DNA from: Mycolicibacterium smegmatis
GTDB lineage: Bacteria; Actinomycetota; Actinomycetes; Mycobacteriales; Mycobacteriaceae
Direction of reading: 5' to 3'
Assembly (NCBI RefSeq): GCF_001457595.1
Contig: NZ_LN831039.1
Location: forward strand, 6,600,001 to 6,632,000
DNA: 32,000 bases
Below are positions 291 through 15,123 of this stretch, one piece after another. Every line of letters begins with the position of its first letter. The first letter of the stretch is position 1. The notes below the pieces were generated by a model that searched no databases, was not told the DNA's origin, and was given only the letters and a program-made list of their open reading frames with translations. Made by a program: the position numbers and the translations under genes.

Positions 291-2800
291 GATCCCCCGC
301 CCCATGGGGTGCTCACGATCTGCATCGCCAGATAAGCGATGTCGGCATACTTGATGTCCGGGCCGTTGTCCGGGTTCCACAACAGCAACAGTTCAGTCAG
401 ACGAGCCAAATCGTGGCAGGCCAACACATACGGCGAGGCCACCTCGTTGCCGGCTAACCACCCCGGCCGCATGGCAGAGCCGTTCGCCGCCGCGGTCACC
501 GATTCCGCCTCCAGTGCTCTCCACCGATCGTGTGACACCGGCAACCCGTTGCCCAATAGCTGCAGAATCTCCCGAATCACCGGCGACACCGCAAGATCTC
601 GAACCGATCCCGCACGCCCCAACGCCATTTCAGCCGCCGACAGCGTTGTGCGCCACGCTTCGGATCGGTCCGGCAGTGGGCCCTCACCGAATCCGGTCAG
701 CCGAGCGTATTCGGCACGGTTCAAGGTCTCCAACCGGTGGCTGTGTGTGTCGTCGAGCGGTGAGGGCGGCGCACCATCAGAGATCGGCGACAGAGACCGC
801 GAGCAGTCTTCATAGTGCTCGATCACCGACCGCGCCGGCATCGATGAGCCCCCGAGATCCGTCGAGACCGCCAACGCCCACAACTCGATATCCGAACGGT
901 GCTCAGAGGCCAACTTCGCATACGCCAGCATCGTCTCGGCCGGATTCGCCCAACTGAACCACCGCGCCCGAAACTCTGGTGGGAGCCCGCCATCGGCGAA
1001 CAACATCCGCGCCGACCGCGGCACAAACACCCCCGCTGGGAGGTAACCGGCACCCTCGCTGTTGACGATCAACGTCTCCACACCCGAGGACGTGCGGAAC
1101 ACACCCACACACCAATCCATGTACGGATACGCCCTGGAATCGTGCAACAGCTGATACAGCAACTGAGAAGCACTCGCCAGCAACGGGTCTGGCAGCGAGG
1201 AGCGGATCGCTTCGCTCGCAGCTCCCGCCGAAGCGCCCACACCGGAGCCCACCACCCCCGGCGGCAACGGCGCCACCGGGCCGGCAGAAGACCCACCACC
1301 ACCAGTCGGTGCGGTCGGCGCCGGCGCAGGACCGGCCGACGGTGTCACCGCGGCAGCCGGTGTCGCAGACCGCGCCACATCAGACCCGAACGGCGGCAGC
1401 GGCCCCATCGGGGCCGCCGGCACACCCGCCGAACCCACAGACCCCACCCCAGGACTTGCCGGCGCCGAAGACGGAACCGCCGGAGCCGACGACGCAGCCG
1501 AACCCGCAGCGACCGTCGACGGCGTCGCCCCCGCCGGAGCCGAAGGCACCCCAGAGGGAACAGCACTACCCGGTGAGCCCGTCGGCTGCGGAGAAACCGG
1601 CGGTGCAAATGTCGCCGGTCCGCCACCAGCGCTCAAACCAGCGCTCAAACCACGAGAAAAGTCCGACGGCGCACCAGCCGATGTCGACAACGGCGACTGC
1701 GGAAGGCCGCCGGCCCCCGGTACACCGCCACTGCTGGGCATGCCCGCACTGCCCAAACCGCCCGGCGAGCTCAACCCCTGAGTCGGCAGCCCGCCCGAAC
1801 CCAAACCGCTTGGCGCCGACGGCATCTTCGGAACACCGCCACTACCAAGGCTGCCTGCCGACCCCAGAGACGAAGCAGACGAACCACCGCCACCACTCAC
1901 GGGCAGTGCTGTTGGTGCTGGAGGGCCATCCTCGCTTGACTGCAAGCCATGACCACGTCTGTCACTTGGTGTGGGTGTGGCCCCTTCACCTTGGCTGGTG
2001 GTTTGGGTGGGTAATTCTTGTTGATCTGCCCCGCTAGCTTCGTCGGAATCGGCGGAAAGTCCGCCCCCACGATGAGGTTTAACCCCGTCTTCCTCAGTTT
2101 CTGTTTGCATGTCGAGCGGAGACGCGGGGGGTTCGGTACCAGGGAATCTGCTGGTTGGCATGCCGTTGCTGCGAGGGCCACCGGGTCCGCGGCCGCCCAT
2201 TCCGACACCTTGGTTTGCGAGGTCGCGCAGTTCGGGGTCGACCGGGTCGGCGCCGCTTCCCTGCCCCTGGCCGCCACTTCCAAGTCCGGCCTCAGCAGCC
2301 TTCGCCGAAATTGCAGAAGTCACCTCGGCGGACTTCGCAGTCGCGGCGGCCCGGGCTGCCGCAACGATTTCCATGATCTGCGCGCCGCCGATAGCCGCGG
2401 GGAAGCCCTGCTGGATGGCCTCCATCACCTTTTTGATCGCCTCATGGGCTTCGGCGTCGATCTGGTCCAGGTCCTCGCGCAGCCCATAGACCAGGCGTGC
2501 GCACTCCTCGCACACTCGCGCGAACGTAAAGTAACGATCCGCCTGCGACGTGTAGATGCTGGCATAGTGGTTCACCTTGTGGACGAAGCCGTCGATCATG
2601 TGGCCCGACTGCTCAGATGCAACCTGATTGCCCGCCTCGCGGCAACTGTCAGCATTCGAAAGAAGATCGACACCCTTAGCGTGCTGAGCGTCAGCAGCCG
2701 ACTGGAAGTTCTGTGGATCCGTAAGAGGCCAAACGCCACCAAGAATCGCTGCTGAGAACTGCCGCTGCGGCATCCCTGCCGGCGCACTGACGCTTACCAC
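287..2800 (-). CDS. EspK-like type VII secretion-associated protein (helical N-domain, long Pro/Gly/Ser/Ala-rich linker, globular C-domain)
   Basis: 837-aa ORF. It has an N-terminal helical region of about 170 aa (DPQNFQSAADAQHAKG...YTSQADRYF) and a low-complexity PGSA linker of about 350 aa. The C-terminal domain is about 300 aa (WCVGVFRTSSGVETLIVNSEGAGYLPAGV...). The tripartite layout and C-terminal motifs resemble M. tuberculosis EspK (Rv3879c) as I recall it. Start is GTG 2800 or ATG 2773. Confidence 0.6.
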   Translation of the reverse strand: MVSVSAPAGMPQRQFSAAILGGVWPLTDPQNFQSAADAQHAKGVDLLSNADSCREAGNQVASEQSGHMIDGFVHKVNHYASIYTSQADRYFTFARVCEECARLVYGLREDLDQIDAEAHEAIKKVMEAIQQGFPAAIGGAQIMEIVAAARAAATAKSAEVTSAISAKAAEAGLGSGGQGQGSGADPVDPELRDLANQGVGMGGRGPGGPRSNGMPTSRFPGTEPPASPLDMQTETEEDGVKPHRGGGLSADSDEASGADQQELPTQTTSQGEGATPTPSDRRGHGLQSSEDGPPAPTALPVSGGGGSSASSLGSAGSLGSGGVPKMPSAPSGLGSGGLPTQGLSSPGGLGSAGMPSSGGVPGAGGLPQSPLSTSAGAPSDFSRGLSAGLSAGGGPATFAPPVSPQPTGSPGSAVPSGVPSAPAGATPSTVAAGSAASSAPAVPSSAPASPGVGSVGSAGVPAAPMGPLPPFGSDVARSATPAAAVTPSAGPAPAPTAPTGGGGSSAGPVAPLPPGVVGSGVGASAGAASEAIRSSLPDPLLASASQLLYQLLHDSRAYPYMDWCVGVFRTSSGVETLIVNSEGAGYLPAGVFVPRSARMLFADGGLPPEFRARWFSWANPAETMLAYAKLASEHRSDIELWALAVSTDLGGSSMPARSVIEHYEDCSRSLSPISDGAPPSPLDDTHSHRLETLNRAEYARLTGFGEGPLPDRSEAWRTTLSAAEMALGRAGSVRDLAVSPVIREILQLLGNGLPVSHDRWRALEAESVTAAANGSAMRPGWLAGNEVASPYVLACHDLARLTELLLLWNPDNGPDIKYADIAYLAMQIVSTPWGGGS

Positions 2801-3384
2801 TTGATGCCTAGTGCGTCGCAGATCGAGAGTGGGCCGCCGTATGCCGACAAACTATCGGCCCAGATTGCCTTGTCGTATTCCTCCGGCGGGCCGGGACGTG
2901 CATTCCGGACATACAGAATCCGGTCGTCGATGAAACGTTGCAGAGTGCGCTGAAAGAAGGGATCAACATCGGGGTGCTGATCGAGTATTGGCTGTATGCG
3001 GTTCGCCCAATCTTCTGTATCCGAGCGGAATTTCGGTAGTGCAGCATCCCTAGCCGGTGTGCCAGGATCACCGGTGTTTCGCCAGGTGTTTGATGTCCGA
3101 TCGTCTTCGGCCATCAGCGGAGCGATGGCGGTGCACAGCGCGCGATCCGCCTCGGTGGTGTCCGAGGGTGTGGCGGTGGCTGGCTGATTCGGCTGAGTCG
3201 CTGCCACATCGGATGGTGCGGGTCGTGTCGCCAAGGCGACAATGCCGACAACCAACGCGGCAAGCGCCATCATCAAAGTGATCAGAGACATCCACGAGAA
3301 CCGTCGCTGGTTCGAAGGCTGTAGCTGCCCCGACGGAGCCCACTGCTGTGCGATGACTGGCTGTTGACCGTGCTGGGGGTCCAT
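2794..3384 (-). CDS. Single-pass membrane protein with Cys-bracketed extracytoplasmic domain
   Basis: 196-aa ORF with a Gln/Pro-rich N-tail and one TM helix (WMSLITLMMALAALVVGIVALA). The ectodomain runs from C84 to C189. Its stop overlaps the downstream EspK-like start by 7 nt. The ectodomain is paralogous to both halves of the 30356..31453 product. Confidence 0.7.
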   Translation of the reverse strand: MDPQHGQQPVIAQQWAPSGQLQPSNQRRFSWMSLITLMMALAALVVGIVALATRPAPSDVAATQPNQPATATPSDTTEADRALCTAIAPLMAEDDRTSNTWRNTGDPGTPARDAALPKFRSDTEDWANRIQPILDQHPDVDPFFQRTLQRFIDDRILYVRNARPGPPEEYDKAIWADSLSAYGGPLSICDALGIKW

Positions 3385-3514: not shown

Positions 3515-3937
3515 ATGGCGGGCAACGAACTACTCGCTCAAGCCACCGTCATCCCCGACTACCACCAGGTGCGTTTCGCCGCACTCGGCGCGAGAAGCGT
3601 TCCTGAACTCGATGACTACCCCGTGGAGTTCATAGCCGACGGATCCAGCATCCACGTGTTCACCTTCGCCGACGACCAAGACGAACACGGCGATCGCACG
3701 GTCGATGTCTATGTCTACCGCGGCACCGACACCGCCGGGCTAGGACGACTCATCTTCGACGCACCTTTGGACTTTTCTCAACCCGAATGCACTTTCGGCA
3801 GTGGACTGTCAGCCGAGGATGACCGTCACCACGTTTCGCTGAGGCGCACGGGCTCCATCCCTATCCGCGTGCTCACACGAGAAACCCAGCCCGGCAACGG
3901 AACCGACATCATCAACGTCCTCATCGACGACAGCTAA
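3515..3937 (+). CDS. Hypothetical 140-aa acidic protein; candidate immunity/nuclease-inhibitor-type protein of the toxin island
   Basis: AGGAG lies 8 nt upstream of the ATG. There is no signal peptide. The last ~10 codons plus the downstream leader are duplicated at 6946 onward. The N-terminal PDYHQV motif and the size are reminiscent of ComJ/Nin-like nuclease inhibitors, but that comparison is from memory and weak. Confidence 0.7.
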   Translation: MAGNELLAQATVIPDYHQVRFAALGARSVPELDDYPVEFIADGSSIHVFTFADDQDEHGDRTVDVYVYRGTDTAGLGRLIFDAPLDFSQPECTFGSGLSAEDDRHHVSLRRTGSIPIRVLTRETQPGNGTDIINVLIDDS

Positions 3938-4226
3938 ATCGCCACAGATCTTCCATATCGCGAAACCGTCTCGTTTTCTAAAGAATCCGGGACGGTCAGA
4001 TCCTGTCTTCAGCTAGAGCCTCTTACCCGGGTTTGTGCGCGGTCGTACGACACGCACGCTATGTGGTCGTACTGGCAGCACTCGATCAACAGAGCCGGAC
4101 CGCATCGAACGGCTTCCTCATTCTCACCACCATGCCGCCTGTGAGCAAACACACAAAGAACGCCCGGCATGCCCACTGACGCATCGCTGAGTTGGTAGCT
4201 GAATGCAGGTCAGAACCGGTTGAAGT
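3909..4226 (+). repeat. Cassette repeat copy A: 3' end of the 140-aa gene plus conserved non-coding leader upstream of the toxin gene
   Basis: By-eye alignment to 6946..7232. The first ~115 nt are about 90% identical (atcaacgtc.tcatcgacgacagcta.atcgccacagatcttc.atatcgcgaaac.gtctcgttt.ctaaagaa...). Homology then becomes patchier but stays clear (ctgtgagcaaac at 4139/7150; gtagct..atgcaggt...accggtt at 4195/7206). Confidence 0.75.
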
Positions 4227-4384: not shown

Positions 4385-6406
4385 ATGCGGGGGGACGGTA
4401 GCTGGATGCCGGGTGCAGGAAACTTCCTGCACGATGGTCGGCACAGTGTGTGGTTGGGCTGGCCGGCGCGTTGGCTGGCCGCGTTGTGCGCGGTGGCGCT
4501 CACCGTCGGCGGGCTGCACCTGCTGGCGCCCTTGCCGCCGAGCGGGGCCGACGAGGCGGCGCAGGGGTTCGCCGACGCCGCGATCGCCGCGTTCACCGAT
4601 TCGGCGGTGGGCTCGGACCCGACACTGACCGCCCCGGCGCGCCGCGCCGGATTACCTGACGACCCGGTGGCCGGGTTGACCTCCCCGACTCCCGCCGGGC
4701 CGGTGCAAGTGGTACTACCGGGCGGGCTCGGCAACGCCCAGCACACCGCAGGCGGGCAAGTCGTCTACCCGAACGCCGGTGCCGGGTTCGACCTGTTGGC
4801 CGAAAACACGGGGAGCGGTACCCGCACCGTGGCCCGGATCAGCGACCCGGGCGGGCCGCGGATGGTCACCACGTTCGTGCGCACCCCGGCCGACACCGTC
4901 ATGCTGGCCCACACCAACGGCTATCTGACCATCAACAAAGCCACTCCCACCGCCGAGACCATCGGCATGTTCTCCCCGGCCGAAACCCGCGACGCCACCG
5001 GCGCATTGGTGCCCAGCTCCTATGTCGTCAAACAACTCGCCCCGCAGTTGTATGTGCTCGCCGAAGTCATCGACCCCCAACCGCACACCACCTGGCCGGT
5101 CTACGCCGACCCACCCCTGCACCTGACCGGGCCCGGCGGGGTGCCGGTGGGCTTGTTCGATTCGTTCACCAACACCGTCAGCTCGCTCGCCGACACTGCG
5201 ACCTCGGCGGTCACCACCGTCGCCTCGGCCACCGTGTCCGGTGCCAAGGCCGTGGGTGGGTTCGTCAAGGAAAACCCACTGGAATCGGCTCTGCTCGTGG
5301 GTGGTGTCGCGTTGGCGGTCACCGGCGTCGGTGGCCCCGCGGGTGCTGCGATGATCGCCTCGGCCACCGTCAACATCTCCAGCGCCGCCGTCGACATCGC
5401 TGCCGCCGCCATGCCCGACAACCAGACCCTGGGCATCGCCTCCACGGTGCTCGGCGCCGCGTCCATGGTCACCCCGCAAGGCGCCGCCAAGAAGGCCGTC
5501 AAAGAAGGCGCCGAACTCGCCGCCGAACAACTGGGCAAGCACGCCGACGACGTCATCGACGTCGCCAAAACCACCCCCACCCCACCAGCACAACTCGCCG
5601 ACGAGGTAGCAGCCGCAGGCACCCCGAAACCCCCAGTCACACCTGGTGTCTCACCGAAAGCCCCCAACGCGCCCCCGGTCAAGGCTGCAGATTCGTCGCC
5701 GAACGCAATCCCGGGCGGGGAGCAGAGCTGGGCGATGGCACCTGCGCCCAACGACAGGCGATTGAGCACCGACATCACCTCGCGCGTGCCGCTACGAAAA
5801 GGCACTAAGCAGCAAGTCCGCGACACTCATCCGTTCCACGACAGCGACGGCACTCCGCTCGATCCGCACACGTTTGAGCGGATTGAAGGGACGCCGCACT
5901 TCGGGCACAAACCAGAGTTCAAGGATGAGACGTCGCGGAAGATGACCGAGAAGTACGGGTTATCGCGTCGTGAGCGGGTCGAATGGGAAAACGTTCCCGA
6001 CCACTACCAACTCGAGAAGCCGCTCGAAAACAGTGGCCACAAGCACGAAATCCCGTACCGGCCAGGCGATGAAGACAAACTGTATGACAAGTTCGTGGAC
6101 TGGTCGCGCAAAGAGATCCATACCAACCCCCGGCTGGCCAAGGATCCCACGGCGCAGCGTCGAGCTAGCCTGGCCCGTCCGACGGGCCCAGACCAGAAAC
6201 GGCAAGTTCAGCATGTTCGCGCGGAGCAGACCACGAATAGGGTGCGCGATACAGCACGTGATAGCGCCCGCGATGCCAACCAATCCAGAAGCCGAAGCGG
6301 CAGTGACTCAGGATCGAAATCCAGTGGTAAATCGTCGGATAAGAAGTCCGATAAGAAGAAGGACAAGAAGAGCAAGAAGCATCACAAGAAGCCGTCCGGG
6401 AAGTGA
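4385..6406 (+). CDS. Secreted polymorphic-toxin-like protein with C-terminal GH-E-type HNH/EndoVII nuclease motif and Lys-rich tail
   Basis: 673-aa ORF with these parts. An N-terminal hydrophobic signal/TM (res 27-50, ...LLAPLPPSGA/DE). A domain of about 250 aa. A Gly/Ala-rich hydrophobic segment (res ~296-365). A Pro-rich linker (res ~396-445). Then HFGHKPEFKDETSRKMTEKYGLSRRERVEWENVPDHYQLEKPLENSGHKHE (res ~505-555). Finally a basic tail ...KSSDKKSDKKKDKKSKKHHKKPSGK. ATG 4406 is an alternative start. Confidence 0.8.
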   Translation: MRGDGSWMPGAGNFLHDGRHSVWLGWPARWLAALCAVALTVGGLHLLAPLPPSGADEAAQGFADAAIAAFTDSAVGSDPTLTAPARRAGLPDDPVAGLTSPTPAGPVQVVLPGGLGNAQHTAGGQVVYPNAGAGFDLLAENTGSGTRTVARISDPGGPRMVTTFVRTPADTVMLAHTNGYLTINKATPTAETIGMFSPAETRDATGALVPSSYVVKQLAPQLYVLAEVIDPQPHTTWPVYADPPLHLTGPGGVPVGLFDSFTNTVSSLADTATSAVTTVASATVSGAKAVGGFVKENPLESALLVGGVALAVTGVGGPAGAAMIASATVNISSAAVDIAAAAMPDNQTLGIASTVLGAASMVTPQGAAKKAVKEGAELAAEQLGKHADDVIDVAKTTPTPPAQLADEVAAAGTPKPPVTPGVSPKAPNAPPVKAADSSPNAIPGGEQSWAMAPAPNDRRLSTDITSRVPLRKGTKQQVRDTHPFHDSDGTPLDPHTFERIEGTPHFGHKPEFKDETSRKMTEKYGLSRRERVEWENVPDHYQLEKPLENSGHKHEIPYRPGDEDKLYDKFVDWSRKEIHTNPRLAKDPTAQRRASLARPTGPDQKRQVQHVRAEQTTNRVRDTARDSARDANQSRSRSGSDSGSKSSGKSSDKKSDKKKDKKSKKHHKKPSGK

Positions 6407-6482
6407 CAACGACTGCGACAAGGTGAAGTCGGCCCGGGTGGTCGCGCGACCCGTCCGTCGTCACGAGTAGGTGAGATGCTAC

Positions 6483-6941
6483 ATGGGCGAGGCAACGGGC
6501 ATACTCGCGCTGCGAAGGTATTGGAAAGGGTGGAATCCGGTGGCCAAGAGTGCTCTGCATACGTCGGCGGGCCTTGACCTTGTTGATGATTTGCGTCGAG
6601 AAATCGTTGATGGGCTCGACATCAACGAAGCCGACGAGGCCGGACTGACTCCTCTACACCACGCCTGCATTCACTGGAGCTACGAATCCGCCAAGATCCT
6701 CCTGGAAGCCGGAGCTGATGTCGACCCCCGAGACCAATGGGGTAACACACCGTTACTGCGGGTGGTCGGCAGCCGAGACGACAGCTTGGCATGGGTCACA
6801 TTGCTGCTCGAATACGGCGCTAACCCAACGATCGAGAACAACTACGGACACTCCCCGCTTAGCAACGCGAAACGAATGCAGGGAACCGAACGGTTGCTTC
6901 CGGCGCTTGAAGAAGCGCAGAAGCGATTTACCGCGCAATAG
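6483..6941 (+). CDS. Ankyrin-repeat protein, candidate cognate immunity protein
   Basis: Ankyrin consensus TPLHHA...LLEAGADVDPRD.WGNTPL...LLEYGANP. It starts 76 nt after the toxin stop on the same strand. AGGTGA lies ~10 nt upstream of ATG 6483; the ORF track start GTG 6471 is the alternative. Confidence 0.85.
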   Translation: MGEATGILALRRYWKGWNPVAKSALHTSAGLDLVDDLRREIVDGLDINEADEAGLTPLHHACIHWSYESAKILLEAGADVDPRDQWGNTPLLRVVGSRDDSLAWVTLLLEYGANPTIENNYGHSPLSNAKRMQGTERLLPALEEAQKRFTAQ

Positions 6942-6945
6942 GCGT

Positions 6946-7232
6946 AATCAACGTCATCATCGACGACAGCTAGATCGCCACAGATCTTCGATATCGCGAA
7001 ACTGTCTCGTTTCTAAAGAACCGAGGACGATCAGATCCTGTCTCAGCTAGACGCCTCATTCGCGCCGTCACGCTCTTGTGGCAGGTGTTCGATAGTGCGA
7101 TTCGAGCACAGACGGATCGCAGCTGGTCCGCACTCGTTTCTAAATGCGACTGTGAGCAAACGCACTCACAATGGCAACCACATTGGCTGGCGCATCGTTT
7201 GATGAGTAGCTACATGCAGGTAGGGACCGGTT
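6946..7232 (+). repeat. Cassette repeat copy B: remnant ...INVIIDDS* of a 140-aa-type gene plus leader
   Basis: It begins 5 nt after the ankyrin-1 stop and aligns with 3909..4221 (see copy A). Homology to the leader ends at about 7232, where sequence related to the toxin 3' end takes over. Confidence 0.75.
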
Positions 7233-7545
7233 TCATAACAACGAGTACAAGGGTTGGCTGAAACCGCAGGTTGATCAGGGCAATAAGCGGTTGGCCAAGG
7301 ATCCCACCGCGCAGCGGCGGCTCCGACAGGAAGCGGGCCCTAGCCAATCCAGCGCCGACACTCAACGCGACACCGCGCGTGAATCAGCACGCACCGCCGA
7401 CAACAACGAATCGGCCAATAATAGCGATTCCAAGCCGCGTGACAACGCAAATGGTAAGAGCAAGGAAAACAAAAAGAACGACAAGAAAAAAGAGAAGAAG
7501 AAAGACAAGAAGAGCAAGAATCACCACAAGAAACCCGGCAAGTGA
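7210..7545 (+). pseudogene. 3' remnant of a paralogous toxin gene (Lys-rich tail only; secretion and nuclease regions deleted)
   Basis: The frame is open from 7210. From 7288, RLAKDPTAQRR...KKKEKKKDKKSKNHHKKPGK parallels toxin residues 583-673 (RLAKDPTAQRR...KKKDKKSKKHHKKPSGK). There is no in-frame ATG; only TTG 7291 is available. Confidence 0.65.
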
Positions 7546-7603: not shown

Positions 7604-8008
7604 ATGGCTCGCACACCGTTGCACATGTTCGGGATGAAATACCGCCGCGACGAGTACCTGGCGTTGATCGCCAGCGGCGAACACGACGTCAACGCCCAAG
7701 ACCTCGACGGTAAGACGCCGCTGCACTATGCGACCGAGCAGGAACAGTCGGAGATCGTGCACGCGTTGTTGGACGCCGGGGCTGATCCGAACGTTCAAGA
7801 ACGCATCTACGGCAATACCCCGCTATCGCAGGCGGTCCTTGAGATTGTCGAGCCCGGGGATCCGGTGATCGTCAAGATGCTCGACCACGGAGCCGACCCC
7901 ACCATCGCCAACAACTACGGCCACTCCGCGCTATCTTCCGCGCGCAGCATCGGCCGTAGCTGTGTGCCGCTGCTTGAAGCCGCCGCAGCCAAAAACAAGC
8001 AGGACTGA
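7604..8008 (+). CDS. Ankyrin-repeat protein, candidate orphan immunity protein
   Basis: KTPLHYA...LLDAGADPN...YGNTPL...LDHGADPTIANNYGHSALSSAR. This parallels ankyrin-1 (GANPTIENNYGHSPLSNAK) but is clearly diverged elsewhere. Confidence 0.85.
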   Translation: MARTPLHMFGMKYRRDEYLALIASGEHDVNAQDLDGKTPLHYATEQEQSEIVHALLDAGADPNVQERIYGNTPLSQAVLEIVEPGDPVIVKMLDHGADPTIANNYGHSALSSARSIGRSCVPLLEAAAAKNKQD

Positions 8009-8031: not shown

Positions 8032-9501
8032 TCAATACCTGTGGATGAGCCTCGGTGTGGGGGCGTGAAGATGGGCGCACCTTCCCGGGGATGATCTTCA
8101 CGGAATCAGGTATTCGATCAAGACCGGCGTTGGCGCGCTGGTTGGGAAGGTACGCCCATGCTCACCGTAGTTCACGACACCGAGGACGCCAACGACAAGG
8201 CCAGCGGTGCTGGTCGGTCGTTGTTGGATGAGATCGTCCGCGACGGGGCCCGGCAGATGCTGGCCGCGGCGTTGCAGGCCGAGGTCGCCGCCTACGTGGC
8301 GCAGTTCGCCGATCAACTCGACGAGAACGGTCACCGGTTGGTGGTGCGAAACGGCTATCACCAGCCCCGGGAGGTGCTGACCGCCGCCGGCGCGGTGCAG
8401 GTGAAAGCGCCGCGGGTCAACGACCGCCGTGTCGACCCCGACACCGGTGAACGCAAGCGGTTCTCCTCGGCGATCCTGCCGGCCTGGGCGCGCAAGTCGC
8501 CGCAGATGAGCGAGGTACTGCCGCTGCTGTACCTGCACGGCCTGTCGAGCAACGATTTCACCCCTGCCCTCGAGCAGTTCCTCGGCTCCGGCGCTGGGCT
8601 GTCGGCCAGCACGATCACCCGGCTCACGGCGCAGTGGCAAGACGAGGCCCGCGCGTTTGGGGCCCGCGACCTCTCGGCCACTGATTACGTGTATCTGTGG
8701 GTCGACGGCATTCACCTCAAGGTGCGGCTGGACCAGGAAAAGCTCTGTCTGCTGGTGATGCTGGGCGTGCGTGCTGATGGCCGCAAGGAGCTCGTGGCGA
8801 TCACCGACGGCTACCGCGAGTCGGCCGAGTCGTGGGCCGATCTGTTGCGCGACTGCAAGCGCCGCGGCATGACCGCCCCCGTACTCGCGATCGGCGATGG
8901 CGCGCTCGGGTTCTGGAAAGCAGTCCGCGAGGTTTTCCCGGCCACCAAAGAGCAGCGGTGCTGGTTTCATAAGCAGGCCAATGTTCTTGCTGCACTGCCG
9001 AAATCAGCGCACCCGTCGGCGCTGGCGGCGATCAAGGAGATCTACAACGCCGAGGATATCGACAAGGCCCAGATCGCGGTCAAGGCCTTCGAGGCCGACT
9101 TCGGCGCGAAGTATCCCAAGGCGGTCGCTAAGATCACCGACGACCTCGATGTGCTGCTGGAATTCTACAAGTATCCGGCCGAACATTGGATTCATCTGCG
9201 AACGACGAATCCGATCGAATCCACCTTTGCCACAGTGCGTTTGAGGACCAAGGTCACCAAGGGGCCCGGATCACGAGCGGCCGGACTAGCGATGGCCTAC
9301 AAGCTCATCGACGCCGCCGCGGCCCGCTGGCGTGCCGTCAACGCCCCACACCTGGTCGCCCTGGTCCGCGCCGGCGCGGTCTTCCATAAAGGCAGACTGC
9401 TCGAACGACCCACCGACATCACCCCGCCAACATCGCCCTCAGACGGCGGTCAGCACGCCGGAACGGAGGTCGCCTGAAACACCCCGATCCACAGGTATTG
9501 A
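8032..9501 (+). mobile_element. IS256-family insertion sequence (IS6120/IS1081-like)
   Basis: Perfect 15-bp terminal inverted repeats TCAATACCTGTGGAT (8032..8046) and ATCCACAGGTATTGA (9487..9501) flank a mutator-type transposase. The repeats extend to 20 bp with 2 mismatches. No 8-9-bp target duplication was found at either boundary choice. Confidence 0.8.
8158..9477 (+). CDS. IS256-family (mutator-type) transposase
   Basis: 439-aa ORF with hallmark stretches for this family: YLWVDGIHLKVR, LAIGDGALGFWKAV, QRCWFHKQANVL, TTNPIESTFATVRLRTK. Confidence 0.9.
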   Translation: MLTVVHDTEDANDKASGAGRSLLDEIVRDGARQMLAAALQAEVAAYVAQFADQLDENGHRLVVRNGYHQPREVLTAAGAVQVKAPRVNDRRVDPDTGERKRFSSAILPAWARKSPQMSEVLPLLYLHGLSSNDFTPALEQFLGSGAGLSASTITRLTAQWQDEARAFGARDLSATDYVYLWVDGIHLKVRLDQEKLCLLVMLGVRADGRKELVAITDGYRESAESWADLLRDCKRRGMTAPVLAIGDGALGFWKAVREVFPATKEQRCWFHKQANVLAALPKSAHPSALAAIKEIYNAEDIDKAQIAVKAFEADFGAKYPKAVAKITDDLDVLLEFYKYPAEHWIHLRTTNPIESTFATVRLRTKVTKGPGSRAAGLAMAYKLIDAAAARWRAVNAPHLVALVRAGAVFHKGRLLERPTDITPPTSPSDGGQHAGTEVA

Positions 9502-9883: not shown

Positions 9884-9959
9884 TGAGCCCCCTGTAGTGG
9901 TCCAGTCGTTGTGGGGACTCTGTTGCCCGAGTGTTCGGGCAGGAAGAATCACCAACGAC

Positions 9960-10247
9960 ATGACATCGAACAAACGCCGGCGGCATACCCCGGATCAGAT
10001 CATCCGCAAGCTCGCCGAGGGCAACAAGCTCCTGGGGACCGGCCAGGAACTCGCCGAGGTGTGCCGGCACCTGGAGATCACCGAGTCGACCTGGCATCGC
10101 TGGGTGGCCCAGTACGGCGGCATGAAAGCCAACGAGGCCAAACGCCTCAAGGAGCTCGAGGCGGAGAACGCCCGGCTCAAGAAGCTGGTCGCCAACCAGG
10201 CCCTCGACATCGACATGCTCAAGGAGATCTCGTCGGGAAACTTCTGA
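9960..10247 (+). CDS. IS3-family transposase OrfA (HTH plus leucine zipper)
   Basis: MTSNKRRRHTPDQIIRKLAEGNKLL...RLKELEAENARLKKLVANQALDIDMLKEI is typical of IS3 OrfA. The ATG at 9960 is preferred over the ORF-track start at 9897, which lies in the inverted repeat. Confidence 0.8.
   Translation: MTSNKRRRHTPDQIIRKLAEGNKLLGTGQELAEVCRHLEITESTWHRWVAQYGGMKANEAKRLKELEAENARLKKLVANQALDIDMLKEISSGNF
10235..10241 (+). other. Candidate programmed -1 ribosomal frameshift heptamer G_GGA_AAC
   Basis: In the orfA zero frame the codons are tcG GGA AAC ttc tga. This is the X_XXY_YYZ form, 4 nt before the orfA stop. The -1 frame continues GKLLTPNRKR... into OrfB. Confidence 0.55.
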
Positions 10248-11098
10248 CCCCGAACCGCAAGCGCAGCGCCGTCATCGCTCTGCGTGAACGGTTCGGGGTC
10301 TCTGAGCGCCGCGCGTGCTCGGTCGTCGGGCTGCACCGCTCGACGATGCGTCTGACGCCGGCTCCGGTCACCACCGAGGAGACCGAGTTGCGGGCGTGGC
10401 TGCGCCGGTTCTCCACTGATCGGCCGCGCTGGGGGTGGCGCCGGGCGGCGAAGATGGCCCGTCGCGCCGGCTGGAATGCCAACAACAAGCGCATCCGCCG
10501 ACTGTGGCGCGAGGAGGGCCTGCGGGTGCCTCAGCGGCGCCGCAAGAAGCGGCTGACGGGGATCGGGGTCGCCGTGGGGGCGATGTCGCCGATCCGTCCG
10601 AATGCGATCTGGGCGATGGACTTTCAGTTTGATACCACCGCTGATGGTCGCACGCTGAAGATGCTCAACGTGATCGACGAGTTCACCCGCGAAGCCCTCG
10701 CCATCGAGGTGGATCGCAGCATCGATGCCGACGGGGTCGTGGCTGTGCTGGATCGGCTCGCGCTCGTCCATGGGGCGCCGCACTATGTGCGTTTCGACAA
10801 CGGGCCTGAGTTCGTCGCGCACGCGGTGCGCGATTGGTGTCGATTCAACAGCGCCGGTTCACTTTTCATCGATCCGGGTTCGCCATGGCAGAACGCCTGG
10901 ATCGAATCGTTTAACGGCAGACTGCGAGACGAACTGCTCAACCTGTGGCGCTTCGATTCGCTACTGGAAGCCCGGGTGATCATCGAGGACTGGCGCTGCG
11001 ATTACAACGCCAACCGGCCCCACTCAGCCCACGGTGACCGCACCCCAGCCGAGTTTGCCCTACAGTGGGCCACGACCCATCAACCGAAAGTCGCATAG
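10235..11098 (+). CDS. IS3-family transposase OrfB (DDE integrase), expressed as OrfAB fusion by -1 frameshift
   Basis: The -1 frame downstream of the slippery site encodes ...PNAIWAMDFQFD...VRFDNGPEF...PGSPWQNAWIESFNGRLRDE...YNANRPHSA, the rve/DDE signature. The N-terminal part of ORF 9911..11098 overlaps orfA out of frame and is not real. Confidence 0.8.
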   Translation, partial: GKLLTPNRKRSAVIALRERFGVSERRACSVVGLHRSTMRLTPAPVTTEETELRAWLRRFSTDRPRWGWRRAAKMARRAGWNANNKRIRRLWREEGLRVPQRRRKKRLTGIGVAVGAMSPIRPNAIWAMDFQFDTTADGRTLKMLNVIDEFTREALAIEVDRSIDADGVVAVLDRLALVHGAPHYVRFDNGPEFVAHAVRDWCRFNSAGSLFIDPGSPWQNAWIESFNGRLRDELLNLWRFDSLLEARVIIEDWRCDYNANRPHSAHGDRTPAEFALQWATTHQPKVA

Positions 11099-11603: not shown

Positions 11604-13274
11604 CTAAGCCTCGATCCACCGATGGAAAGCCTGGATAGGCGGGTGTCGATATAAGGAAAGTGCCTTCTGAGCTGCGATGATGAGTGTTCCTTACGCACTT
11701 ATCGGCACAACTTCGAAAGGCACTTCCGGTGAAAGTGTCGCACAACTTCATGGCTGCGTCTGCAGTGTTCGATGATGAGCATCTGGTGTCGTGCGCCGGC
11801 CTGGTGCCGGTGATGACCCTGGCCAGCCAGACCGGGCTATCGGACCTGATCGCGGACAAGGTCGAAATCGTTGAACCGCGGATCAAGTCCGGCTCGGCCA
11901 ATCCGTCACCGAAGCTGACGACAGTAATCGCCGGAATGTGCGCCGGCGCCGACAGCATCGACGACCTCGACATCGTGCGCTCCGGTGGAATGAAAGCCCT
12001 CTTTGGCGGCGTGTACGCGCCCTCGACCATCGGAACACTGTTGCGGGAGTTCACCTTCGGACACGCCCGACAACTGGAAGCAGTGCTGCGTGAGCATCTG
12101 GGCGGGCTCTGCGAGCGCGTCGCGTTGCTACCCGGCGCCGATACCCAAGCGTTCGTCGACATCGATTCACTGCTGCGCCCGGTCTACGGCCACGCCAAAC
12201 AAGGAGCCTCCTACGGACACACCAAGATCGCCGGCAAGCAGATCCTGCGCAAAGGCCTCTCGCCGCTGATCACCACCATCAGCACCACCACGGGTGCCCC
12301 GATGATCACCGGAGCCCGGCTGCGGGCGGGCAAGACCAACTCCGGCAAGGGCGCAGCCCGGATGATCGCCCAAGCAGTCACCACCGCCCGCGCCGCCGGT
12401 GTCAACGGGCAGATCCTGGTGCGCGGAGACTCGGCCTACGGCAACAGCACCGTGGTGAATGCCTGCCGACGCGCCGGTGCCCACTTCTCGCTGGTGCTGA
12501 CCAAGACCCGCGCCGTCGCTGCGGCCATCGAGGCCATCAGCGATAACGCCTGGACCCCGGTCAACTACCCCGGCGCAGTGCGCGACCCCGACACCGGCGC
12601 CTGGATCTCCGATGCCGAAGTCGCCGAAACCACCTACACCGCTTTCAGTTCCACCAACACCCCGGTCACCGCTCGGTTGATCGTGCGCCGGGTCAAAGAC
12701 GCCCGATACCTCGATGCGCTGTTTCCGGTGTGGCGGTATCACCCCTTCTTCACCGATTCCGACGAACCCGTCGACGCCGCTGACATCACCCACCGCCGCC
12801 ACGCCATCATCGAAACCGTGTTCGCCGACCTGATCGACGGACCGTTGGCGCATATGCCCTCCGGGCGGTTCGGCGCGAACTCGGCCTGGGTCCTGTGCGC
12901 GGCGATCGCCCACAACCTGCTGCGCGCCGCCGGGGTGCTCGCCGGCGGTGCCCATGCCCTCGCGCGCGGAGCCACACTGCGCCGCAAGATCGTCAACATC
13001 CCGGCTCGACTGGCTCGGCCCCAACGCCGACCCATCCTGCATCTACCCTCGCATTGGCCGTGGGCCCAGCAGTGGCTCACATTGTGGCGCAACACAATCG
13101 GCTACAGCCCGCCAACTGCTGCGACCCACTGACCACCGGACCCACAGGCCCCGACCCGAACATCACAGGAAAAGCTGGGCAGACCAGCGGCTACAGGCTG
13201 CCCACGACCTGGGCGCACGACAAAAATCAGCCCCAAACAACCTCAACAGGGTCGATCCACGGATCGAGGCTAAG
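11604..13274 (+). mobile_element. IS1380-family-like insertion sequence (~1.67 kb; possibly IS1549-related)
   Basis: Terminal inverted repeats CTAAGCCTCGATCC (11604..11617) and GGATCGAGGCTAAG (13261..13274) match at 13 of 14 positions and enclose a single long DDE transposase ORF. Confidence 0.65.
11684..13132 (+). CDS. IS1380-family DDE transposase
   Basis: FDDEHLVSCAGLVPVMTLA...AGMCAGADSIDDLDIVRSGG...APSTIGTLLREFTFGH...VRGDSAYGN... matches what I recall of actinobacterial IS1380-family transposases. The true start may be a downstream GTG or ATG (11732-11750). Confidence 0.75.
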   Translation: MFLTHLSAQLRKALPVKVSHNFMAASAVFDDEHLVSCAGLVPVMTLASQTGLSDLIADKVEIVEPRIKSGSANPSPKLTTVIAGMCAGADSIDDLDIVRSGGMKALFGGVYAPSTIGTLLREFTFGHARQLEAVLREHLGGLCERVALLPGADTQAFVDIDSLLRPVYGHAKQGASYGHTKIAGKQILRKGLSPLITTISTTTGAPMITGARLRAGKTNSGKGAARMIAQAVTTARAAGVNGQILVRGDSAYGNSTVVNACRRAGAHFSLVLTKTRAVAAAIEAISDNAWTPVNYPGAVRDPDTGAWISDAEVAETTYTAFSSTNTPVTARLIVRRVKDARYLDALFPVWRYHPFFTDSDEPVDAADITHRRHAIIETVFADLIDGPLAHMPSGRFGANSAWVLCAAIAHNLLRAAGVLAGGAHALARGATLRRKIVNIPARLARPQRRPILHLPSHWPWAQQWLTLWRNTIGYSPPTAATH

Positions 13275-14112
13275 ACAGTCTCAGACCGACGGTCATCCGA
13301 TCCTTCAGCGGCTCGGTGATCACCTGGTCGCCCTTGTCGACGGACAAGGAGTTCACGGGATCGGCGAACGCGCCGAGCTGACATGGCATGTAATCGGAAC
13401 CGGCTCGCTCACTTATCCCGACGACGACAGTGATGTTGCACCGCCGGATCTCGCCGTCCAGTCCCGCCTGCGTGAACCCGACGTGGTGTTCTCTGTAGCC
13501 GACGGCACCGTCCTCACACCGGCGATACCCGCGGGCGAGCAAGTCCGGCGTGCTGCGGTCTATCCGGGTGGGTTCGCGTACGAGCTTGCGCGTGACCACT
13601 CAACTGGCGCAGGGATCGCCTTTTTCGATGATAAAGGTCGGCAGACCGGCCGCCTGGACGGTGAAGCGAAGCTCCTTACCGGCTCTGAAGCCTTACCAAT
13701 GGCTCAGCTTGCCAACCAAGACCAGATTCTGTCGGTAACAGGCACCCCACTTCTGTCGTTGCCGAAGTCGACCTTGTTGCCCTACACCCGGCTCGCCGGA
13801 ACGACGCTTCTCGTCTCCACCGACGAGGAGCACAGTGCGTGGCAACAATTCGATCTGCGCTCAGGTGACTCAGGTGTGACATGCAACAACGAGGCTCTCT
13901 GGTACTCCTATATAGGGTCCAGCGGTGACATCGTCCTCACGGGAGGTGGCCGCACACCCGTGCTTGCCCAGGCCATCGATCTAACCACGTGCGAAACCTT
14001 ATGGACGCTACCTGGGTCAACCGAATCGGAAGCGAAGGATCTGTGGCGAGTCAACGAGACACTCATCCTCCGCGTCAACAATCAGTTGTCCTCCCTGGTC
14101 TCACCCGACTGA
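13275..14112 (+). pseudogene. IS-interrupted PQQ-like beta-propeller gene, right fragment
   Basis: The 12895-frame is open through 14112 (..SQTDGHPILQRLGDHLVALVDG...AIDLTTCETLWTLPG...). Removing 11604..13278 joins it in frame to the left fragment. Confidence 0.45.
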
Positions 14113-14125
14113 TATGTGCAGGTTG

Positions 14126-14914
14126 TCAGGACCCACCGTAGGGTCCACCTTCACGAGCAAGGTCCTCCCCGATGAGTCCGTCGATGCACGCGCGTAGTGC
14201 AAAAGCATCAATGGGCTCGGCATATCCCGACCCGTCACACGTGTACAGGTAGGCGCCGTCGTCCTTCACCTGAACCCAATGCCGAGTCCCGCCACCCATC
14301 GATTGCACGGTGCCGGTGGCGACGATGTCGCTTTCGTCGACCTTGTCGTAGGCAGGGCCTCGCGGACCGGTATTCGCAACTGGGAAGCCGAAAGCGTCGT
14401 ATTCGTCGACTGATTCGGGTGGGGGTGGTAATTGCTCTCCACCACCGCTGACCGCAATGCGTGGGCGGAAACCGGCATGCTCCAGGCCAACCGAATGGGC
14501 GATCGCGGCGCCTATATCGCCCGGCGGCAGTGAGTAAATGTCCACGATGTCAACACCATCGGAGTCGGTTTGCTGAACTGCGACGAATGCCGAGTCGTTC
14601 GCCGCCACGCCGTTGACGCGCAGATCCAGCGTGCCCTCGTCGGTGAAGCTCACACGACATCCCACGCAAACATCAGCCCGTGCAAAAGCTTCGACCCACT
14701 CCCGAACCTCTCTGAGGTCTCCTCCCGCGAGACGGTCCTCGATCGGTGCAACCTCTCTGGTGACAAGCCATACCGAGCCCACGGGTCGGCTGCGCCCAAG
14801 CGGAAAAGGAAGCCAGTCCCGCTCGTAAAGTCCGCATGCTGCCTCCAAATCGACCACCGCAACGGTGCCGACCGCATCCAGCGGCACCGTCTCACCACCC
14901 GGCAAGTACGTCAT
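14126..14914 (-). CDS. EspG-family protein (type VII secretion PE/PPE chaperone family), orphan copy
   Basis: 262 aa. The N-terminal LEAACGLYERDWLPFPLG, the central ...VAVQQTDSDGVDIVDIYSLPPGDIGAAIAHSVGL and the C-terminal TRHWVQVKDDGAYLYTCDG..EPIDAFALRACIDGLI follow the EspG segment order as I recall it from EspG3. Confidence 0.55.
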   Translation of the reverse strand: MTYLPGGETVPLDAVGTVAVVDLEAACGLYERDWLPFPLGRSRPVGSVWLVTREVAPIEDRLAGGDLREVREWVEAFARADVCVGCRVSFTDEGTLDLRVNGVAANDSAFVAVQQTDSDGVDIVDIYSLPPGDIGAAIAHSVGLEHAGFRPRIAVSGGGEQLPPPPESVDEYDAFGFPVANTGPRGPAYDKVDESDIVATGTVQSMGGGTRHWVQVKDDGAYLYTCDGSGYAEPIDAFALRACIDGLIGEDLAREGGPYGGS

Positions 14915-15123
14915 GGGCCCCAGCCTGCCATGGAGAGCACATTGTGAGGTCTTTCGCAGGCCGATTGGTCTGTACCGAAGCCGCTCTCGCGTCGTCGGCT
15001 GTTGCGCGCCATCCGTCCCATCCGGTTTCCCGTCGAATACTTGTGCTGTAGGTCACATCGGGGAATGGTGGAAACAGGCCCGAGGGCCGCAGCGTGGCGC
15101 CCCGGGGGACCAGGAGGACAGCT

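Follow-up and report, generated by a model that had tools for sequence, protein, structure and literature searches.

Introduction

The Neisseria MafB toxins combine a Sec signal and a DUF1020 N-terminal domain with a variable C-terminal toxin, and are accompanied by MafI immunity proteins and orphan cassettes. Nuclease colicins and S-type pyocins (for example colicin E9/Im9, with an HNH DNase) have no signal peptide, are released by a lysis protein, and enter cells through Tol/Ton across the Gram-negative envelope. Here, we describe a polymorphic toxin gene (4385..6406, + strand) in a 32,000-nucleotide stretch of Mycolicibacterium smegmatis DNA (contig NZ_LN831039.1, positions 6,600,001 to 6,632,000), which we call the window and within which all positions below are counted. 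The gene has an ATG start and encodes 673 amino acids, as judged from the open reading frame (ORF) list and 136 homologs, and the next gene encodes an ankyrin-repeat protein. We consider it fairly probable that the two form an antagonism module of fast-growing mycobacteria, made up of a polymorphic DNase toxin and a cytoplasmic immunity protein. Judging from their sequences, such a toxin probably lets fast-growing mycobacteria kill unprotected relatives.

Ankyrin immunity is listed for this toxin domain family by Zhang et al (2012; PMC3482391), who include Imm-ank among the partners of Tox-GH-E and give G-H, E, N, and E as the conserved Tox-GH-E residues. The window locus resembles these Tox-GH-E/Imm-ank pairs (PMC3482391) in its toxin domain family, its ankyrin immunity, its constant N-terminal and variable C-terminal regions, and the HINT domains of some relatives. 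It differs from them in that its carrier region matches no Pfam leader or pre-toxin domain (MafB-N, LXG/WXG, RHS, TPSASD, and others) and that a basic tail of ~75 amino acids follows the toxin domain. With MafB, the family shares a signal-type N-terminus, a genus-restricted N-terminal domain, swappable toxins with downstream immunity, orphan modules, and the lack of a fused large-machine domain. Unlike MafB, it shows no DUF1020 match and no conserved nearby MafA-like lipoprotein gene, and it has a hydrophobic Gly/Ala region, a C-terminal tail, and nuclease-only payloads. Nuclease colicins show no sequence relation to the window protein, but would work alike: both would join receptor-binding and membrane-crossing parts to an HNH-superfamily DNase, with a tight-binding cytoplasmic immunity protein encoded downstream. 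The target envelope here would be mycobacterial.

The S8-PTS/BetaH toxins of Bacillales and some actinobacteria (PMC9424270) are likewise polymorphic toxins found in monoderm or Gram-positive-type bacteria; they carry a Sec signal and a beta domain that putatively binds a receptor. BetaH is ~120 amino acids long, acidic, and released by a separately encoded S8 peptidase (PMC9424270). In contrast, the beta domain of the window toxin spans ~200 amino acids and has no Pfam match, setting it apart from BetaH by description, and we found no S8 peptidase or subtilase gene among the window neighbors or in annotated loci L001-L005. The S8 systems also provide precedent for Gram-positive Sec-signal toxins in which a cationic element appears to help direct the toxin to the anionic envelope (PMC9424270, PMC13556192), and the cationic helix of the Staphylococcus aureus S8-Ntox35 toxin is a precedent for cationic homing or entry (PMC13556192). 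In the window toxin, the cationic element is the C-terminal tail.

Within mycobacteria, CpnT/TNT and the EatA and ESX-4 LXG-like toxins (PMC13444075) are similarly encoded with downstream immunity. Benedict et al (Nat Commun, June 2026; PMC13444075) state that there was no earlier report of mycobacterial competition via secreted protein toxins. They describe the ESX-4-dependent arabinanase EatA and further predicted type VII secretion system (T7SS) toxins, some with HNH/ENDO payloads and all with a helical-bundle N-terminal domain and Tap genes, and call it unclear how a toxin crosses multiple membrane barriers. EatA has an N-terminal helical bundle and Tap partner genes, and CpnT has an outer-membrane channel domain; the window family has neither. 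Moreover, EatA acts on arabinogalactan outside the cell, whereas the payloads of the window family must reach DNA. The original prediction, made from the sequence of the window alone, held that nuclease-type interbacterial toxins with ankyrin immunity were not known to have been characterized in mycobacteria; we found no experimental study of a nuclease toxin in mycobacteria, PMC13444075 covering T7SS-type toxins only. We also found no paper on this toxin family or on the mc2155 paralog A0QUB6, in a search that did not span every journal.

Homologs share a constant region and carry different nuclease payloads

In a search of 5.8 billion proteins, we identified 136 homologs of the window toxin, and those with a named source all come from Mycolicibacterium, Mycobacteroides, or unnamed Mycobacterium strains. 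The best homolog, P0001 from M. smegmatis, is 99% identical to the 673-amino acid protein and carries the NCBI name 'GH-E family nuclease'. The homologs have the first ~430 amino acids in common and then continue into different payloads: GH-E (PF14410), HNH/HNH_5 (PF01844/PF14279), GIY-YIG (PF01541), or NucA/NucB-like (PF14040). Every recognizable payload in the family is a nuclease. The boundary between the constant and variable parts is marked by a Pro-rich linker ending in PKAPNAPP (residues 401-431; 5585..5677, +). The Pro-rich stretch as a whole spans about residues 396-460, and the near-invariant PKAPNAPP occupies residues 424-431, with K425, P427, N428, A429, P430, and P431 conserved in at least 90% of 99 sequences. 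Straight after this motif, the sequences split by payload type. Because the homologs keep the N-terminal ~430 amino acids but carry five different nuclease payloads, the window protein is a true polymorphic toxin, in agreement with the original prediction. Every part of the architecture described there was also found: an N-terminal hydrophobic segment, a domain, a Gly/Ala-rich region, a Pro-rich linker, and a C-terminal module. The basic tail, a toxin remnant with a second ankyrin gene, an orphan immunity gene upstream, and relatives with HINT domains, all described below, go beyond that prediction.

In some relatives, a polymorphic-toxin HINT domain (PF07591) is inserted ahead of the payload, beginning just past PKAPNAPP and ending in ...VHN/C (the slash marks the junction). 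In HINT/intein chemistry, Asn cyclization at such a junction releases the downstream fragment, and by analogy we infer that the VHN/C junction of these relatives does the same. NCBI names several relatives 'polymorphic toxin-type HINT domain-containing protein'; public annotation already calls these relatives polymorphic toxin-type, and the system is not categorically new. Judged by its sequence organization, the family is a polymorphic toxin system of the Zhang/Aravind type, with a previously unnamed, mycobacteria-restricted carrier and an unusual basic tail. Its distribution is patchy and strain-variable, with several paralogous toxin loci per genome and a set that differs between strains.

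The window payload is a predicted GH-E DNase

The variable toxin cassette of the window protein covers residues 432-597 (5678..6175, +), where sequences diverge in a payload-specific manner after PKAPNAPP. Within it, residues 488-555 (5846-6049, +) form a GH-E HNH/EndoVII-type nuclease core, matching the Pfam GH-E model PF14410 over its full length (model positions 1-68 of 68; E=4.9e-12). The score of 46.7 bits exceeds the curated gathering cutoff of 25 bits, so that the family assignment made in the original prediction, for which a Pfam check of the C-terminal module had been proposed, stands. The signature motif HFGHKPEF...PDHYQLEKPLENSGHKHE lies at residues 505-555 and ends in ENSGHKHE. Among 14 diverged family members, G507, H508, P510, E530, E533, N549, and E555 are invariant, further supporting the GH-E assignment. 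H552 is nearly invariant, being replaced by Arg in a second GH-E subtype. The two residues named earlier for point mutation, H507 and H552, fare differently: residue 507 is a glycine, and since it directly precedes H508, the conserved histidine of the G-H motif is H508; H552 stands as a histidine, though only a nearly invariant one.

We modeled the C-terminal 242 amino acids together with 14 GH-E relatives using AlphaFold 2, and obtained a predicted local distance difference test score (pLDDT) of ~90 for the core. A Foldseek search of this model against the PDB returned only non-significant top matches, among them McrA (6ghc, E=1), Cap5, and Hpy99I, which are HNH/beta-beta-alpha-Me nucleases. 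The search thus gave no significant match to the EndoVII or colicin DNase folds that the original prediction looked for. PDB sequence searches with the whole protein and with the GH-E profile returned no relatives. Based on the sequence match and motif conservation, we predict that the window payload is a DNase.

Downstream genes co-vary with the payload

The gene following the toxin, ank1 (6471..6941, +; 152 amino acids from the ATG at 6483), encodes an ankyrin-repeat protein that matches the Pfam models Ank (E=1.3e-12), Ank_2, and related ones. We compared 29 loci, comprising the window, loci reached by exact-protein look-ups, and loci from a scan of one genome per species, and extracted the toxin and downstream ORFs from each. 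All five GH-E toxins are followed by an ankyrin gene, including that of Mycobacteroides sp. LB1, whose ankyrin protein is 68% identical to ank1. Different genes come after the other payloads: a homolog of the window gene ORF140 after NucA/NucB-like payloads (about nine of ten loci), a DUF4265 gene after HNH payloads (2/2 loci), and an ORF of 330-380 amino acids after GIY-YIG payloads (4/4 loci). Immunity arrays occur at loci L014, L016, L019, L020, and L023.

Such co-variation of payload and downstream gene is the standard comparative signature of cognate immunity. Together with the listing of Imm-ank by Zhang et al (2012), it supports the earlier proposal that the ankyrin gene encodes the cognate immunity protein. 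Neither ank1 nor a second ankyrin gene of the window, ank2, encodes a hydrophobic N-terminus or signal peptide, consistent with an inhibitor that acts in the cytoplasm against a toxin aimed at DNA.

The locus retains debris of cassette replacement

Downstream of ank1, we found a duplicated stretch (6947..7232, +) that is a copy, at ~85-94% identity, of positions 3911-4221. The source comprises the last 27 nucleotides of ORF140 and ~290 nucleotides of the intergenic DNA that normally lies 5' of the toxin gene. The copy is joined directly to an orphan toxin remnant (7240..7545, +) consisting of the last ~100 codons (NNEYKGWLK...KKPGK, then the stop codon), with the catalytic core deleted. By comparison with P0002/P0005, this remnant belongs to the GH-E subtype of M. 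goodii and M. wolinskyi (type 2); it is annotated elsewhere as an 84-amino acid gene. Next comes ank2 (7604..8008, +; Ank_2 E=3e-24), whose product is 40% identical to that of ank1. In M. wolinskyi (L006), a gene 84% identical to ank2 follows an intact type-2 toxin. On this comparison, the cognate toxin of ank2 is the type-2 GH-E toxin that was deleted, and ank2 survives as an orphan immunity gene.

Upstream of the toxin, ORF140 (3515..3937, +) belongs to the NucA/NucB class of immunity genes and is an orphan here: its homologs (28-88% identity) lie immediately 3' of NucA/NucB-type toxins in at least nine loci. It has no Pfam, PHROG, or PADLOC match. The orphan genes ank2 and ORF140 imply that this strain keeps protection against at least two toxins that it no longer makes. 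Read in this way, the locus carries the debris of cassette replacement together with orphan immunity. An IS256-family transposase gene (8158..9477) and two further insertion sequence (IS) elements lie 3' of the locus, in an IS-rich variable region.

The N-terminus suggests Sec-type export

The NCBI annotation pipeline PGAP places the start of the toxin at V37, giving a protein of 643 amino acids, and this start would cut into the N-terminal hydrophobic segment. An exact-sequence look-up with the 673-amino acid product found no identical record, the deposited versions having the later start and a 6-amino acid indel. The motif NFLH..HS.W.GWP.RW, encoded 5' of the hydrophobic segment, is conserved across species; this favors the long form over the V37 start and argues for the ATG-4385 form being the translated one.

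Residues 1-51 (4385..4537, +) comprise this conserved stretch and the hydrophobic segment, and form a putative Sec signal peptide or signal-anchor. The segment, at residues ~30-50, reaches a Kyte-Doolittle score of 1.95 in a 19-residue window, and AlphaFold 2 models a helix at residues 25-47. Among 78 homologs with complete N-termini, 67 have a hydrophobic 15-mer (Kyte-Doolittle score of at least 1.8) preceded by Lys or Arg, and the hydrophobic segment starts around residue 20 and is ~20-23 residues long. These features make Sec-type export of the toxin plausible. Given the length of the segment and its position ~20 residues into the protein, an uncleaved signal-anchor and a cleaved peptide are equally likely. 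Compared with P0001 and most homologs, the window protein is missing the six residues RTVSAA (around 4550-4560, residues 56-60), and with them the ...VSA/AQ motif that would be the most plausible signal-peptidase site in its relatives (the slash marks the cleavage position).

We found no WXG100/LXG, PE/PPE, Rhs, CdiA, MafB-N, or TNT domain at E<=1 in the window protein or at E<=10 in 13 N-terminal modules of the family. The absence of a known mycobacterial or classical delivery N-terminus, as first noted from the sequence, therefore extends to the Pfam and NCBIfam models, TNT included. Across the 29 loci, no neighbor recurs apart from the immunity genes, and there is no conserved secretion-system or Tap/Lap-like gene. 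The absence of a machine-type N-terminal domain, of a recurring neighbor, and of a PADLOC match favors export by a general pathway of a self-contained two-gene module. We favor placing the toxin, on its sequence, in the 'type II secretion system (T2SS)/Sec-dependent' class of the scheme of Zhang et al, with a new leader domain. The original prediction of Sec-dependent export with subsequent self-translocation is plausible, the translocation role of the Gly/Ala region being an analogy.

The carrier includes a beta domain and a hydrophobic region

A beta-rich domain with many invariant residues follows the N-terminal segment (residues 52-262; 4538..5170, +) and ends in W237-P-V-Y-x-D-P-P. AlphaFold 2 modeled residues ~55-250 (~200 amino acids) at pLDDT >90. 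Searches with this domain, or with the N-terminal module that contains it, matched no Pfam, NCBIfam, or PHROG family for the window protein and no Pfam family for 13 diverged members (E<=10). A Foldseek search of the full model against the PDB showed a weak resemblance to the beta-sandwich N-terminal domains of GH92, GH63, and GH65 enzymes and to the YidC P1 domain (E 0.008-0.1). As this resemblance is weak, carbohydrate binding is only a lead for the modeled domain. Most likely it binds an envelope component, and we refer to it as a putative envelope- or receptor-binding domain. A phage tail-fiber origin was considered and is unsupported, as Foldseek of the model against viral structures gave nothing meaningful.

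A profile of the N-terminal module had 59 matches among 1.84 billion cluster representatives. Those with the weakest scores (E 1e-7 to 1e-3) are ~300-amino acid 'hypothetical' proteins; those with a species name come solely from Streptomyces huasconensis, and most others come from metagenome or read-archive assemblies. We inspected ten such relatives (P0151, P0152, P0156, P0157, P0159, P0160, P0162, P0163, P0166, and P0171). Most start with a sequence resembling a signal peptide, in several cases a textbook one, and the rest are truncated at the N-terminus or unclear. In all ten, the beta domain (...APWAKDA.G..V.T.Y...YPVVADP) is followed by a Cys-rich hydrophobic C-terminus. The signal peptides of these relatives support an extracytoplasmic location of the domain, and the relatives themselves may, by sequence, be small toxins that are secreted, act on membranes, and use this beta module too. 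On one contig (L031), an 81-amino acid ORF lies just downstream of such a relative; the gene context of a Streptomyces relative was not informative.

Residues 263-400 (5171..5584, +) comprise a Ser/Thr/Ala-rich helix followed by Gly/Ala-rich hydrophobic helices, and form a putative membrane anchor or insertion hairpin. The sequence reads VKENPLESALLVGGVALAVTGVGGPAG...MPDNQ...MVTPQGAAKK. Its hydrophobic peak lies at residues ~300-326 (Kyte-Doolittle 19-mer score 1.6; family median 1.62), and G314, G316, P344, P364, and G366 are invariant in the hydrophobic region. AlphaFold 2 models residues 263-397 as several short helices at pLDDT ~30. This region could serve as a tether to the membrane of the producer. 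Alternatively, by analogy with the hydrophobic hairpins of pore-forming colicins and diphtheria toxin, which insert into membranes, it could enter that of the target. We also considered whether the ...MVTPQG... region is a PT-TG pre-toxin domain; this is unsupported, as Pfam scans of 13 N-terminal modules (E<=10) were empty. A separate protein, P0155 (376 amino acids, with a DUF7334 match), contains three repeats of a unit resembling the hydrophobic element VKENPLESA-LVGGVAL..TG.G, indicating that this element exists as an independent, repeatable module.

A conserved basic tail follows every payload

The toxin domain of a polymorphic toxin normally lies at the extreme C-terminus, and the tail that follows the payload in this family (residues 598-673; 6176..6406, +) is unusual. 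It is present after every payload type. Over its ~75 amino acids, it comprises a predicted helix at residues 602-633 (consensus Q..VTN.QR..A...A), a Ser/Gly/Asn-rich stretch, and a polybasic end, KKKDKKSKKHHKKPSGK, which finishes in a polylysine run. The net charge over residues 586-673 is +17. Between paralogs of one genome, nucleotide identity is 68-88% in the tail and 68-94% in the N-terminal modules, while the payloads are unalignable. We rejected the idea that the tail is a recent gene-conversion tract, since its identity of 68-88% lies below that of the N-terminal module; this level of divergence argues instead that the tail is kept by selection. Searching for homologs of the tail by itself told us little, as its low complexity left only 11 candidates.

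HINT cleavage would leave the tail on the payload, which is a nuclease in every case. Given these two properties, we consider it most likely that the tail serves either in DNA binding or in electrostatic homing to and entry through the anionic envelope. The main alternative is that the tail serves as a secretion signal.

A model for toxin delivery and its alternatives

Our model begins with the N-terminal segment, which would direct Sec-type insertion or export and place the beta domain and the rest of the protein outside the cytoplasmic membrane. The exported toxin would then be released, or remain tethered by its N-terminal anchor, its hydrophobic helices, or both, with the Pro-rich linker spanning the wall. 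In HINT-bearing relatives, the nuclease and tail would be freed by HINT self-cleavage; in the window protein, they would be freed by some protease, or not at all. The nuclease and tail would next enter a neighboring mycobacterium and degrade its DNA, unless a matching ankyrin protein binds them.

Several points weigh against this model. The long hydrophobic segment and the conserved N-terminal extension of ~20-30 amino acids fit a membrane anchor as well as they fit a signal peptide. If residues 300-326 formed a single stable transmembrane helix, the nuclease would be placed in the cytoplasm. The window protein has no HINT domain to account for its release. The fold assignment of the modeled beta domain rests on non-significant Foldseek matches, and the toxin-domain model had no significant structural neighbor in the PDB. 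Lastly, the barriers around the target (the mycomembrane, the arabinogalactan-peptidoglycan layer, and the plasma membrane) would all have to be crossed.

As a tentative extension that we regard as possible but doubtful, the constant parts of the protein may make up a self-sufficient, secretion-system-independent device for delivering nucleases across the mycobacterial envelope, a 'mycobacterial colicin'. The beta domain would serve as the receptor binder, the Gly/Ala hairpin with its acidic, Pro-containing tip would mediate insertion or translocation, and the tail would act as a new entry or homing signal common to all payloads. The ~300-amino acid Streptomyces relatives would then belong to a wider, so far unrecognized class of actinobacterial protein bacteriocins that use this module.

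A different route would make the toxin the substrate of a machine encoded elsewhere (ESX/T7SS or conjugation-type), with the tail as the recognition signal and the N-terminal segment not a Sec signal. It is generally known that secretion substrates can carry C-terminal signals, which the tail after the payload recalls. One gene of the window, encoding 837 amino acids, has a weak WXG100_2 match (E=0.03), another ORF is weakly EspG-like (E=1e-4), and one paralog adjoins a PhageMin_Tail-type gene of 1214 amino acids. T7SS-delivered toxins with HNH/ENDO payloads have also been predicted in M. abscessus (PMC13444075). However, the WXG-like gene, the EspG-like ORF, and the tape-measure-like gene each occur in loci of M. 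smegmatis only, and neither a Tap/Lap-like gene nor any other such neighbor is conserved in the 29 loci. The toxin itself has no WXG/LXG helical N-terminal domain, AlphaFold 2 instead modeling a transmembrane-like helix and then the beta domain. By eye, we noticed no YxxxD/E-type motif in the tail, and the proteins related to the beta domain begin with Sec signal peptides. On balance, we think delivery by such a machine rather unlikely.

The toxin could also act within its own cell, as a membrane-anchored toxin-antitoxin, abortive infection, or defense-sensor system. Its N-terminus would then be inside, the beta domain would be a sensor outside, and a single transmembrane span at residues ~300-326 would return the nuclease to the cytoplasm, where the ankyrin protein would hold it until a trigger arrives. 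Both hydrophobic peaks are at or above the usual membrane-span threshold, the immunity protein would be cytoplasmic, and the locus lies in an IS-rich variable region. The ankyrin proteins match PADLOC candidate-defense models (PDC-M72A, E~1e-12), but these matches reflect the repeat itself, and PADLOC has no match for the toxin. An invariant GxGGP turn breaks the second hydrophobic region, which is modeled as short helices rather than one span. Orphan immunity genes, decapitated remnants, HINT domains, and the constant-N/variable-C organization are instead hallmarks of secreted polymorphic toxins (PMC3482391), and make a cell-autonomous system improbable to us. Finally, an export signal and a DNase domain would also suit a housekeeping enzyme that is secreted to break down extracellular DNA, as a nutrient or in biofilm remodeling, and the NucA/NucB-type relatives resemble secreted Bacillus DNases by Pfam name alone. 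Such an enzyme, however, would have no need for orphan immunity genes, swapped payloads, or a cytoplasmic inhibitor that tightly co-varies with it, and would not be expected to have so patchy and strain-variable a distribution, making this explanation very improbable.

The preferred reading, a secreted toxin with cognate ankyrin immunity, points to a second mycobacterial toxin route that is apparently independent of T7SS and whose payloads need to reach the cytoplasm. M. smegmatis is a standard genetic model with several strain-variable paralogs, so that envelope crossing, the receptor, and entry by the polycationic tail are directly testable. The system could yield protein-delivery tools for mycobacteria or, because relatives occur in the M. 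abscessus group, narrow-spectrum agents against nontuberculous mycobacteria.

Other genes in the window and at a paralogous locus

At loci L001-L003 (4698-9505), the HNH-type paralog P0027 (A0QUB6 in mc2155) lies directly after the 1214-amino acid PhageMin_Tail gene and a DUF7257 gene; a DUF4265 gene comes next. We rejected a link to phage or integrative and conjugative element machinery as a feature of the family, since the PhageMin_Tail and DUF7257 genes beside P0027 are confined to M. smegmatis loci. PHROGs gave no match for the window toxin, ORF140, or their neighbors.

At the 5' side of the window toxin, the 837-amino acid protein (287-2800, -) has its weak WXG100_2-like match at the N-terminus, followed by a long Pro/Gly/Ser/Ala-rich middle and an unassigned C-terminal domain of ~300 amino acids. 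A neighboring gene (2794-3384, -), overlapping it by 7 nucleotides, encodes a 196-amino acid protein with a single transmembrane segment. Judged by sequence, the two may be a T7SS-type substrate or toxin pair. The 837-amino acid protein is found solely at loci of M. smegmatis, and strain CP089233 (L005) has it in disrupted form.

On the 3' side, an IS3-family element (9911..11098) lies between the IS256-family transposase gene and a DDE_Tnp_1_4 transposase gene (11684..13132). Two M. smegmatis small RNA families of Rfam, Ms_AS-8 (8048-8122, -) and Ms_IGR-7 (11610-11728, -), lie at the edges of these two transposase genes, and here they may be IS-end transcripts rather than free-standing small RNA genes; like the near-identity to P0001, they agree with M. 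smegmatis as the source. A 405-amino acid ORF (12895-14112, +) matches, over 234 amino acids at 95% identity, a 414-amino acid L005 gene with the Pfam domain Conj_beta_prop_9; it is probably disrupted, as its 5' part overlaps the IS at 11684..13132. The EspG-like ORF (14126-14914, -; 262 amino acids) has a sub-threshold match to the EspG family (22 bits against a threshold of 27). A 682-amino acid ORF (14911-16959, -) lies opposite 15094-17319 (+) and is probably spurious, as L005 has, in the corresponding region, an EF-G-like GTPase annotated on the opposite strand.

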